DNA of 64,000 bases, taken from a virus. This document shows positions 10,109 through 12,520 of this stretch, piece after piece. The position numbers were made by a program, and so were the translations under genes. The stretch covers positions 1-64,000 of IMG/VR virus record IMGVR_UViG_3300037088_000361. One strand, written 5' to 3'. Each line of letters begins with the position of its first letter. The first letter of the stretch is position 1. Under the pieces are notes generated by a model, which was given only the letters and a program-made list of their open reading frames with translations, made no database searches and was not told where the DNA came from.

Positions 10109-10184
10109 TGGTTCCCGAGGGAGGACTCGAACCTCTCATCTTCACTTTCAAAGAGTGACGTGGCTACCGTTGCACCACTCGGGA
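10109..10184 (-). tRNA. tRNA-Gln(TTG)
   Basis: TCCCGAG/CTCGGGA acceptor, TCACT-CT-TTG-AA-AGTGA anticodon arm, TTCGAGT T-loop, encoded CCA. Confidence 0.9.
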
Positions 10185-10191
10185 ACAATAT

Positions 10192-10264
10192 TGGCTCGGG
10201 AGGAAGGATTCAAACCCTCGTACAGGGGTCCAACCCCCCGGTCCTATCACTAGACGACTCCCGA
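10192..10264 (-). tRNA. Atypical/degenerate tRNA with Gln-like body, anticodon unclear (TTG or TGG)
   Basis: TCGGGAG/CTCCCGA acceptor, G73, CCA; T-arm GAGGG-TTTGAAT-CCTTC; anticodon arm CGGGGGGTTGGACCCCTG gives no clean 5-bp stem with 7-nt loop. Confidence 0.6.
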
Positions 10265-10450
10265 ACAACCTAAATCTTCATTGCTAAATACACTATTTTT
10301 GATGCGTTTTTCAACTATAAAACAAACCCATTACTCGGTTCATTAGGTTAAAACAAAAAATGGTGTCTCACACCTAGTACACTGGGTGAAACGCTTTTAA
10401 CACCTCACTAGCATAAAATAGATATGCAGTTCAATACTAGGAGGCAACTA

Positions 10451-11176
10451 ATGAAGGCATCACCAAAACTTATGGTCGCCATAATGCGTTCTGCTGCGGT
10501 AAACAAACAAAGAGCTATAGATGGCTACTTGTCCAACCCCAACCACTGTGAATTTTGTAGGGCTGTCATACCTCTAAAGCCAAACGCTACAAGGACTGTA
10601 TCGACCGCCCGCAGGCAGAAGTATTGCAATCATTCATGTGCAGCATCCGCCATTAACGCCAAGTATCATAAACGTAAACTAGAGGGTTCCTGCACCAAGT
10701 GCTCCGCACCTTGCCCAACTAACTACCAACACTGCAAAGACTGCATAGATAGGTACACTAAATCTAGCAGCGATATAAAAGGTCATAGTGAAGGCGGCAA
10801 GTCTCGCGGGACAACAGCGGTTATCAGCTATGTGTCCTATATTGAAAGCTGGCTAACCGGTGGTAAGTCGGGCATGAGTGGTACAACTAACATATCACGC
10901 CATATTAAACGCTGGTTACGCACCACACGTGGCAATGCCTGTGAGCATTGCGGTTGGTGCATGGTCAATCCAGTTACTAGAAGAGTTCCAGTAGAAGTCA
11001 ACCACATTGACGGCAACCATCAGAACTGCTGCCCAGAGAACTTAGAACTTATTTGCCCAAATTGCCACTCCCTGACATCAAACTTTCGTGCTTTGAACAA
11101 GGGCAATGGTAGAAAATCACGTCGTATTGGAGCAGGCGGTGAGAATCCAACTCACATACCTATTTTACAAGAATAG
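10451..11176 (+). CDS. HNH homing endonuclease, antisense to the tRNA cluster
   Basis: AGGAGG RBS; CEHCG...VEVNHIDGNHQNCCPENLELICPNCHS; N-terminal Zn fingers. Confidence 0.88.
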   Translation: MKASPKLMVAIMRSAAVNKQRAIDGYLSNPNHCEFCRAVIPLKPNATRTVSTARRQKYCNHSCAASAINAKYHKRKLEGSCTKCSAPCPTNYQHCKDCIDRYTKSSSDIKGHSEGGKSRGTTAVISYVSYIESWLTGGKSGMSGTTNISRHIKRWLRTTRGNACEHCGWCMVNPVTRRVPVEVNHIDGNHQNCCPENLELICPNCHSLTSNFRALNKGNGRKSRRIGAGGENPTHIPILQE

Positions 11177-11203
11177 GGTAATTGAGCATTATACGACGCC
11201 TGC
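11128..11203 (-). tRNA. tRNA-Thr(TGT), non-canonical elbow
   Basis: GCAGGCG/CGCCTGC acceptor; CTATT-CT-TGT-AA-AATAG; T-arm GTGAG-TTGGATT-CTCAC; CCA. Confidence 0.85.
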
Positions 11204-11209
11204 AAAATC

Positions 11210-11284
11210 TGGAGCCTAAGGTCAGAATCGGACTGACGACCCCTCCCTTACCAAGGGAGTGCTCTACCACTGAGCTACGAAGGC
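11210..11284 (-). tRNA. tRNA-Thr(GGT)
   Basis: GCTC-AGTGGTA-GAGC D-arm; CTCCC-TT-GGT-AA-GGGAG; two acceptor-stem mismatches; CCA. Confidence 0.85.
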
Positions 11285-11289
11285 AAAAA

Positions 11290-11365
11290 TGGAGCTGCTG
11301 GGGAGGATTCAACTCCCGACCCTCGCATTACGGGTGCGATGCTCTGGCAACTGAGCTACAGCAGC
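11290..11365 (-). tRNA. tRNA-Thr(CGT), C33 and non-canonical elbow
   Basis: GCTGCTG/CAGCAGC acceptor; TCGCA-CC-CGT-AA-TGCGA; T-arm GGGAG-TTGAATC-CTCCC; CCA. Confidence 0.85.
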
Positions 11366-11966
11366 AAACTTGGTACGCCCGGAGGGATTCGGACCCGACC
11401 ATGACACCCCTATCGAGGGTGCATCCTGCCGTTAGATGACGGGCGCATAATCTCAATTCCTCATGAACCTCAAAATGACAGTTAGAACATAAGAGGTCAC
11501 ACTTATCAAGTTCTTTCTTTAGCCTTTCCCATGCCAACGACATCCTACCTGCGAGTGTGAACTCTTTCTTATTCGGGTCTAAATGATGAAACCCCAGAGC
11601 GTCTAAACACTTGCTATACCCACATCGCTGGCATTTACCGCCTCTGTACTCCAAGCACCGCTGTTTATTTTCGGTACGTTTTCTGTTAGCAAAACAAGAG
11701 TTACAGAAAGTCAACCCGTGACCTTTTTTCTTATCATAAATATAAATCCTTGAACAACGAGAGCAACTTATCTTGGGCATCTCCATCGTTCTGGCCACTG
11801 CAACCGTTACTATCTGCCCATCTTTTGTCTGCTTCAACTCCTTTGTGTTATGAGAACCGAAGGGAGAGCATTTAAGACAGTATTTACGATGTTGAAGGTT
11901 CTTTTGTTTACCGTCTACCCACATTTTATATGGTATTCTGGAATTGCATAACTCACAATTTCTCAT
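11328..11966 (-). CDS. HNH homing endonuclease; 3' end runs into tRNA genes
   Basis: GGKCQRCGY...ALGFHHLDP...ELDKCDLLCSNCHFEVH. Confidence 0.88.
   Translation of the reverse strand: MRNCELCNSRIPYKMWVDGKQKNLQHRKYCLKCSPFGSHNTKELKQTKDGQIVTVAVARTMEMPKISCSRCSRIYIYDKKKGHGLTFCNSCFANRKRTENKQRCLEYRGGKCQRCGYSKCLDALGFHHLDPNKKEFTLAGRMSLAWERLKKELDKCDLLCSNCHFEVHEELRLCARHLTAGCTLDRGVMVGSESLRAYQVCCCSSVARASHP
11371..11446 (-). tRNA. Atypical tRNA, anticodon GAT (Ile-like), weak T-stem
   Basis: GCGCCCG/CGGGCGT acceptor, A73, CCA; CACCC-TC-GAT-AG-GGGTG; only 3 good T-stem pairs. Confidence 0.6.
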
Positions 11967-12019
11967 ACTAGAGGGTTTGGTAGCTTAAAAAAAAATTAAA
12001 AAATTAACCTCCAGATGAG

Positions 12020-12382
12020 CTACCCGCCCACAATCCTCTTAATCTCTTCTTCCGCCTTCACCCGAAACAGGTCAAAGTGCTGCTCAAATCCGCAAGGTGG
12101 GGCAACCCAAGTTGGCATAATCTCTACGCCCTCTGGGACTGTGTCATAGTCCCTCTCCCTCGGTACCGCACCTATGTCCCTCACGATATGGACAACCGCC
12201 GCTTTAGCTCCCTCGGGTCCAAATAACTCCTGTGCCTTCCTTACCCCGTTGGTGTGGTGCCGATAATGCCTGTGGGCGGCTCCCTTCCTCCAGAACAGCC
12301 TGTCCATCCATCGGTTTACCGCTTCGTGCCGGTCACCAAGGATGGTCTTGCAGTCAAGGCAATGTTGTTCAAACTTGGCCAT
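12020..12382 (-). CDS. His-rich hypothetical protein (DUF6915-like), first gene after the attenuator
   Basis: H...W.D...HRHYRHH..G....LFG....HIVRDIG.VP pattern; AGGGGAG RBS directly after the terminator U-tract. Family assignment from memory. Confidence 0.65.
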   Translation of the reverse strand: MAKFEQHCLDCKTILGDRHEAVNRWMDRLFWRKGAAHRHYRHHTNGVRKAQELFGPEGAKAAVVHIVRDIGAVPRERDYDTVPEGVEIMPTWVAPPCGFEQHFDLFRVKAEEEIKRIVGG

Positions 12383-12391
12383 AACTCCCCT

Positions 12392-12422
12392 AAAAAACGA
12401 AAAAGCCGCCTTTCTGGCGGCT
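12392..12422 (-). terminator. Intrinsic terminator (attenuator 3:4 hairpin)
   Basis: AGCCGCC-AGAAA-GGCGGCT followed by TTTTCGTTTTTT. Confidence 0.9.
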
Positions 12423-12445
12423 GGAGAGTCTCAACTCGGATTTTA

Positions 12446-12520
12446 TTATCCCGAGCAGGCTCCGCCGCCAGCCCAAATTTGGGTCTGCGTTTGTGTGTGC
12501 GGCATGGTGATGTTCATCAT
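12446..12520 (-). CDS. Attenuator leader peptide MMNITMPHTQTQTQIWAGGGACSG
   Basis: Manual translation; tandem TAA TAA stops; run ACA CAA ACG CAG ACC CAA; too short for the ORF track. Confidence 0.8.
   Translation of the reverse strand: MMNITMPHTQTQTQIWAGGGACSG

Follow-up and report, generated by a model that had tools for sequence, protein, structure and literature searches.

Transcription attenuation by leader peptides is known from enterobacteria, where it operates in the leader of the thr operon, which senses Thr and Ile, in the ilv leaders, and also in those of trp, his, leu and pheA. These attenuators combine a short open reading frame (ORF) enriched in the sensed codons with an intrinsic terminator and mutually exclusive 1:2, 2:3 and 3:4 pairings of the leader RNA, in which region 2 is masked by a ribosome that finishes the ORF. 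The same device acts on the translation machinery in pheST, where the pheM leader provides feedback from charged transfer RNA (tRNA), and T-box riboswitches (RF00230) likewise sense tRNA status and choose between terminator and antiterminator upstream of translation-related genes. To our knowledge, no tRNA genes controlled by leader-peptide attenuation are known, and a full-text literature search returned no paper whose listing or abstract opening pointed to attenuator control of tRNA genes. Here we describe such a candidate in a window of 64,000 nucleotides (nt), the first 64 kb of the 127,843-base viral record IMGVR_UViG_3300037088_000361 (hereafter G000). On its minus strand, a 24-codon ORF with many Thr, Gln and Ile codons precedes an intrinsic terminator, and tRNA genes for the same three amino acids lie further downstream. 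In our judgement, it is quite likely that this element is a ribosome-mediated leader-peptide transcription attenuator gating a phage tRNA operon.

The element shares with the enterobacterial attenuators the sensed-codon ORF, the terminator, the predicted exclusive pairings and a region 2 located where a ribosome completing the ORF would cover it, and its peptide, Thr/Ile-rich and ending in Gly, is reminiscent of the thr leader; the thr and ilv leaders appear to be its closest counterparts. However, its targets are tRNA genes together with one protein of unknown role rather than biosynthetic enzymes, it is carried by a phage, with a version for each tRNA operon, its stop codon lies in the loop of an extra hairpin, and no sequence relationship is seen. 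Moreover, whereas the enterobacterial leaders sense one to three amino acids, the phage leaders described below sample nearly all anticodons of their operons (120/123). The pheST attenuator differs in controlling a synthetase and sensing a single amino acid, and the T-box in binding uncharged tRNA directly via one specifier codon, with no ORF. In a cmscan search of positions 9000-14000 at E values up to 1, five tRNA matches and two weak unrelated ones were found, with neither a T-box nor any other Rfam leader family among them; we therefore regard the window element as an analogue of the known systems, not a homologue.

The leader ORF reads exactly as the original prediction had placed it, at 12520-12446. 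Thr, Gln and Ile account for 9 of its 24 codons, and a run of them at codons 9-15 spans 12496-12476. The three Thr codons within the run, ACA, ACG and ACC, are the cognates of the three Thr anticodons encoded downstream, as had been claimed. Considered by itself, this leader shows an enrichment of limited significance (Thr or Gln at 7 of 23 residues versus an expected 0.11; binomial P = 0.011), and the evidential weight rests on its relatives.

Relatives were collected from viral contigs by searching with the DUF6915-like protein encoded just after the terminator, which yielded 8 loci, and then with its alignment, which yielded 17 (49-82% identity). A scan of viral contigs with a 16-base pattern gave 75 stretches, 11 of which carry the leader (adding 4 new contigs), the rest being chance matches in coding DNA. 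A Thr/Gln/Ile-rich short ORF, a G+C-rich hairpin and a T-run stand just upstream of the DUF6915-like gene at 15 of the 17 loci. Of the remaining two, one is on a contig that begins within this gene, and the other is in the record G001, where the gene is embedded in a Tyr/Leu tRNA cluster. In every case with sequence available downstream, the leaders of this type are followed by one or two tRNA-Ile(GAT), two to four tRNA-Thr and one or two tRNA-Gln(TTG) genes. In G001, the terminator of the Thr/Gln/Ile leader ends 10 nt ahead of a tRNA-Ile gene, leaving no room for a separate promoter, and at locus L003 the tRNA-Ile gene overlaps the 3' end of the DUF6915 ORF.

The relatives fall into 11 distinct leaders of 23-32 codons, all in frame from ATG to stop and each containing 8-15 Thr, Gln or Ile codons. 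Ile is encoded 19 times by ATC or ATT and never by ATA, as fits a single Ile(GAT) tRNA type; Gln is encoded by 18 CAA and 7 CAG codons, the anticodon being TTG. Among five close relatives of equal length, differences at codons 2-16 number 39, 43 and 72 by codon position, with the third position highest, and codons 17-24 are nearly fixed (6, 14 and 12). From these patterns of substitution, we read the first part of the ORF as being under codon-level constraint and the second part as being under RNA-level constraint. The more distant leaders, L103, L104, L105, L107 and that of G001, have peptides that share almost only composition with the window leader. The ORF, the terminator and the tRNA set have thus been conserved in relatives while the leader peptides diverged; conservation of the ORF and hairpins was one of the tests named in the original prediction.

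The same arrangement recurs at other tRNA operons of this clade of jumbo phages. We compared G000 with G001 (332 kb), G002 (456 kb), G003 (317 kb) and G004; G001, G002 and G003 are 99-100% complete and contain 49, 64 and 62 tRNA matches, respectively. Across the five records, 19 tRNA groups were drawn from the 150 matches listed out of 195, and 17 of these groups are preceded by a short, ATG-started leader ORF ending just before a hairpin. A terminator passing a strict filter lies shortly upstream of the first tRNA, usually by 10-23 nt, in 13 groups, and two further groups have a clear terminator outside that filter, giving 15 of 19. The composition of each leader follows its tRNAs. A second leader in G000 precedes 13 tRNAs for Val, Gly, Ala, Asp, Glu and Cys and contains a 19-residue stretch made almost wholly of these six amino acids, with the promoter-like 10-mer found ahead of the window leader again lying upstream. 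Elsewhere in the clade, a Leu/Ser/Tyr-rich leader stands ahead of Tyr, Leu and Ser tRNAs, a leader with a run of Ser ahead of four Ser tRNAs, a His/Arg/Asn/Lys/Gln leader ahead of tRNAs for these amino acids, Pro/Met/Phe leaders ahead of Pro, Met and Phe tRNAs, and a leader containing Arg, Asn, Lys, Pro, Met, Gln, Trp, His and Phe ahead of exactly those nine tRNA types.

This correspondence was quantified for 16 leader/operon pairs, with the distal tRNAs in L110, L111, L118 and L121 left out of the leader assignment. In all 16 pairs, the leader contains every amino acid served by the tRNAs of its operon. The pooled leaders contain 216 cognate codons among 462 in the reading frame (47%), versus 67/446 (15%) and 75/446 (17%) in the other two frames, and the 120 of 123 anticodons that find a cognate codon in their own leader compare with 160 of 411 for the leaders of other operons in the same genome. 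When leaders were permuted among operons, no other assignment scored as well as the true one in G002 (720 permutations), G003 (24) or G001 (24), at the amino-acid level as well as at the codon/anticodon level. Binomial enrichment of single leaders lies between 7e-7 and 0.096. Because leaders belonging to one operon type are homologous across genomes, the independent evidence amounts to five or six operon types rather than 16 pairs. That leader codons should covary with the anticodon set had been proposed as a test; the other operons bear this out, and these comparisons support the reading of the element as an attenuator whose codons match the downstream tRNAs.

We then consider the leader RNA, whose foldings agree with the structures originally proposed. 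The intrinsic terminator (12422-12392) was independently predicted as a stem-loop at 12422-12404 followed by the T-run, with a stem of 7 pairs (6 of them G-C) and a 5-nt loop. The 181-nt leader RNA surpasses all 200 shuffles in folding stability (z = -3.37), and its minimum-energy fold comprises the proposed 1:2 protector helix, the terminator and a small hairpin whose loop holds the stop codon. When the transcript is cut at the terminator stem (142 nt), the minimum-energy fold is instead the proposed 2:3 antiterminator, a helix of 12 pairs with one bulge joining 12471-12460 to 12427-12415 and enclosing the stop-codon hairpin; this duplex has an energy of -18.6 kcal/mol (z = -2.8), equalled by 0.010 of shuffles. 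When a ribosome was represented by blocking nucleotides -15 to +12 around the A site, in an equilibrium model of the transcript up to the terminator stem, the terminator probability of the window leader was at most 0.22 while the A site lay within codons 1-13, and it was 0.97 for all positions between codon 14 and the stop. Ribosome-constrained folding of this leader therefore behaves as the original prediction expected.

Conservation and the other leaders add to this picture. In seven close relatives, the nucleotide sequence of region 2 is invariant and a 5-pair core of the 1:2 helix is kept, the latter without covariation; the stop-codon hairpin shows a compensatory change in 2 of the 7 sequences, with 95% of cells paired, and two pairs of the terminator carry compensatory changes in the consensus fold of this close family. 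Leaders that are otherwise unrelated (L109, L115, L116, L118, L121 and L107) share a Gly-Trp-Asp/Gly-type C-terminus, whose codons form the stem of the stop-codon-loop hairpin. In all 16 leaders, the terminator 5' arm finds its best ORF partner in the 3' portion of the reading frame. Tests of the ORF:5' arm duplex against 500 dinucleotide shuffles gave z values from -0.7 to -3.8, with 11 of the 16 at or below 0.025 and 13 at or below 0.062. The spacing is uniform: in 13 of the 16 leaders, 22-28 nt separate the stop codon from the terminator stem, and of the 216 cognate codons, 150 are found 12 nt or more upstream of region 2. In a model in which the transcript is cut before the terminator 3' arm, which is nearer to the co-transcriptional order of events, the 5' arm is sequestered by a distal-ORF segment, and a ribosome in the last third of the ORF abolishes this pairing in 11 of 12 leaders.

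Taken together, these elements suggest the following mechanism. Transcription would start at a phage promoter near 12680 and proceed through the 24-codon leader. If the Thr, Gln and Ile codons are read fast, the ribosome would reach the end of the ORF and cover region 2, the terminator would form, and transcription would halt ahead of the DUF6915 gene and the Ile, Thr and Gln tRNAs. If charged tRNA-Thr, tRNA-Gln or tRNA-Ile is scarce, the ribosome would stall at codons 4-13 and leave region 2 free to pair with the terminator 5' arm, so that RNA polymerase would read into the operon. The supply of these tRNAs would thereby set their own synthesis in a negative feedback, and the same design with different leaders before nearly every tRNA operon of the clade would allow each tRNA group to be sensed separately. 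From the arrangement of the leader, we infer that it is translated and that read-through responds to stalling; host tRNA-cleaving defences, host shut-off, codon-usage mismatch and starvation are candidate physiological triggers. The tRNAs are probably made mainly when ribosomes read the cognate codons slowly; the original prediction went further in proposing that they are made only then and in suggesting a link to host tRNA-cleaving defences.

Several observations weigh against the attenuator. Under equilibrium footprint folding, a full switch is seen in only 2 of 12 leaders, the window leader being one of them, and the other 10 favour the terminator wherever, or almost wherever, the ribosome is placed, at most or all positions. 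In the window leader free of ribosomes, the terminator is part of the 181-nt minimum-energy fold but has a probability of 0.08 in the 142-nt transcript. Five of the 16 ORF:5' arm duplex tests exceed 0.025. A covariation count for the antiterminator in the seven close-family sequences found an invariant core, no covariation and no excess over shuffle controls; since the core pairs are invariant in all seven, they carry no information on covariation. The Shine-Dalgarno-like, purine-rich element of the window leader is weak. In the window, the terminator and the tRNAs are about 1 kb apart, with two protein genes in between, and a terminator-like hairpin at 10374-10353 (minus strand), between the Thr and Gln tRNAs, together with the two insertions of HNH endonuclease genes, may have weakened the link to the Gln tRNAs. 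Elsewhere in the clade, two Pro/Met/Phe leaders have a non-canonical terminator, with a hairpin but a weak or absent T-run, and 2 of the 19 tRNA groups, both with CTA-anticodon tRNAs, have neither leader nor terminator. The public runs that contain 9900-12800 comprise DNA from peat metagenomes, with no RNA run. Finally, the leader ORFs were first picked by eye among the listed candidates; a rule checked afterwards, taking the longest ATG-started ORF that ends upstream of the terminator stem, selects the same ORFs.

Some of these points would also suit a constitutive, leaky terminator preceded by an incidental or insulating short ORF, which would fix tRNA transcription at a low level or merely end a small leader, with no modulation by ribosomes. 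Such a terminator agrees with its being kept in 10 of 12 leaders at any ribosome position in the equilibrium foldings and with the lack of covariation in the antiterminator, yet it leaves unexplained why each leader matches its own tRNAs in frame and why the complementary segment always falls in the last third of the ORF; we consider it improbable. The peptides themselves might instead be functional micropeptides, for example through the Gly-Trp-Asp/Gly C-terminus, with the terminator simply ending the gene. A similar C-terminal motif in several unrelated leaders fits this proposal; however, the peptides diverge freely save for a composition that tracks the tRNA set, and since the C-terminal codons form the stem of the stop-codon hairpin, the recurrent C-terminus has an explanation at the RNA level, which makes this proposal exceedingly improbable.

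Two other explanations concern what is sensed and what is controlled. RNA-only sensing as in T-boxes, in which leader triplets would pair directly with uncharged tRNAs at their anticodons and thereby stabilise the antiterminator, with no need for translation, would account for the match of triplets to anticodons, and T-boxes also choose between terminator and antiterminator. We hold it to be very improbable, given the outcome of the Rfam search described above, the presence of the triplets in one frame with start and stop kept in 11 diverged leaders, and the up to 14 different anticodons that one RNA would have to read. It is also conceivable, with a probability that we put scarcely higher, that the attenuator mainly controls the DUF6915 gene and that the window tRNAs are transcribed from other promoters. 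In the window and most relatives, this gene starts 10 nt after the T-run, and in the window about 1 kb and an HNH gene come before the tRNAs. Against this stand the G001 operon, whose leader directly precedes tRNA-Ile and whose DUF6915-like gene belongs to the Tyr/Leu operon, the overlap of tRNA-Ile with the gene end in L003, and the leaders of other operons, which directly abut tRNAs. Furthermore, a search for the phage-type promoter motif found none between 12392 and 10109; within the window, it occurs only upstream of the leader.

The attenuator thus being the favoured reading, its parts and their neighbours are collected in Table 1.

Table 1. Features of the leader and tRNA operon in G000, in minus-strand order, with the second leader of the same record.
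Feature	Position	Strand	Basis or remark
Sugar transferase gene, bacterial-type	12709-13449	minus	Pfam Bac_transf, E = 2.5e-56; directly upstream of promoter-like region
Promoter-like region	12671..12706	minus	Ends in 10-base -10-like motif, 12680-12671
Structured 5' untranslated region, ~150 nt	12521..12670	minus	Partly conserved in L003, L008 and L002; no Rfam match
Leader ORF, 24 codons + stop	12446..12520	minus	Second stop at 12445-12443
Region 1, 5' strand of 1:2 helix	12481..12503	minus	Overlaps Thr/Gln codons; minimum-energy fold
Region 2, codons 17-21	12460..12471	minus	Alternative partners: region 1 or terminator 5' arm (antiterminator)
Small hairpin, leader stop codon in loop	12432..12455	minus	Fold and consensus of close family
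Region 3, complementary to region 2, includes terminator 5' arm	12415..12427	minus	Folding
Intrinsic terminator	12392..12422	minus	Stem-loop 12422-12404 and T-run to about 12392
DUF6915-like gene, 120 residues, first after terminator	12020..12382	minus	Pfam E = 2.6e-5, below curated cut-off
HNH homing-endonuclease gene between DUF6915 gene and tRNAs	11438..11966 (end approximate)	minus	PHROG HNH endonuclease, E = 3.2e-37
Ile(GAT)-like tRNA	11371..11446	minus	Aligns with relatives' second tRNA-Ile; possibly degenerate
tRNA-Thr(CGT)	11365-11290	minus	ARAGORN and Rfam
tRNA-Thr(GGT)	11284-11210	minus	ARAGORN and Rfam
tRNA-Thr(TGT)	11203-11128	minus	ARAGORN and Rfam
Second HNH endonuclease gene, antisense to operon	10424..11176	plus	Divides Thr tRNAs from Gln tRNAs
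Gln-type tRNA, six-base anticodon loop (one base short)	10264-10192	minus	Homologue of relatives' first tRNA-Gln
tRNA-Gln(TTG)	10184-10109	minus	ARAGORN and Rfam
Second leader of G000	76970-77080; terminator 77105-77127 (L013 1203-1401)		Outside window

The promoter-like region was not called by a generic sigma-70 scan. Its exact -10-like 10-mer occurs once in the 64-kb window, at 12680-12671, and the motif is also found upstream of other tRNA-operon leaders in the clade. Between promoter-like region and leader, the 5' untranslated region includes a G+C-rich hairpin at 12559-12533, just ahead of the ribosome-binding region; the untranslated regions before the leaders of other operons are much shorter than that of the window. 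The source record has an estimated completeness of 41% (CheckV), so the full phage probably measures about 300 kb. A distant blastn search of GenBank phages matched 31 records in tRNA-sized pieces only, covering at most 5% of the query, which indicates that there is no cultured relative.

Downstream of the terminator, the tRNA cluster lies on the same strand as the leader, as the original prediction stated; what it overlooked are the DUF6915-like and HNH genes in between and the antisense HNH gene that splits the cluster. Of the tRNAs that it listed, the three Thr genes and Gln(TTG) were called by both ARAGORN and the Rfam tRNA model and the Gln-bodied gene proved to be the counterpart of the first tRNA-Gln of relatives, its loop being one base short, whereas the Ile(GAT)-like gene was called by neither program, though it aligns with a tRNA-Ile of relatives. 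Relatives have no HNH gene at the places corresponding to either of the two, and one of these insertions probably displaced the first tRNA-Ile. The DUF6915-like gene has a good ribosome-binding site and encodes a protein with conserved His, Cys and Asp residues, for which AlphaFold gives an all-helical model at a mean predicted local distance difference test score (pLDDT) of 62. A search of sequences in the PDB at E values up to 1 found no match for this protein, a protein atlas placed it only in DUF6915 or hypothetical viral clusters, and PHROGs in one family of unknown function. The gene is always found within a tRNA operon, behind the Thr/Gln/Ile leader in most genomes and in the Tyr/Leu operon in G001 (L102 3001-3348).

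Further features of the tRNA operons were seen across the clade. Genes for tRNAs with a CTA anticodon, of the amber-suppressor type, occur at L115 2703-2989, L117 2449-2649 (minus strand), L103 2016-2090, L104 1304-1378 and L107 1438-1514, and hint at reassignment of TAG; the second leader of G000 and that of L100 end in TAG, which would matter if this codon were read through. Anticodon loops of six or eight bases are found in tRNA genes at L109 2665-2735, L110 4280-4353, L113 3524-3592 (minus strand), L115 2527-2600 and L117 2199-2274 (minus strand), and these abnormal-loop tRNAs may be decoys, frameshift suppressors or decayed genes. In G000, a phage-encoded transfer-messenger RNA (tmRNA) gene lies just after the Val/Gly/Ala/Asp/Glu/Cys operon on the same strand (L012 2442-2805, about 80.9-81.3 kb in the record).

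The leader/operon pairs together allow a broader reading, which we offer tentatively as a possibility rather than an expectation. Almost every tRNA encoded by these phages would be polled by at least one leader codon, and a shortage, whether caused by host anticodon nucleases, by the phage's own degradation of host tRNAs or by codon-usage mismatch, would switch on the operon that replaces the missing species. The genome would then possess an operon-by-operon tRNA homeostat, acting both as an inducible counter-defence and as a self-tuning supply for translation.

In these phages, a logic familiar from amino-acid operons appears to govern the decoding machinery, with one "codon test" peptide matched to each tRNA operon. 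If its function is confirmed, such control would account for the dosing of tRNA genes in phages that carry 50-60 of them, and it would provide a direct readout of the tRNAs that become limiting during infection. The leaders would also offer compact, programmable codon-specific sensors, and the role of phage tRNAs against tRNA-targeting defences would become experimentally testable.

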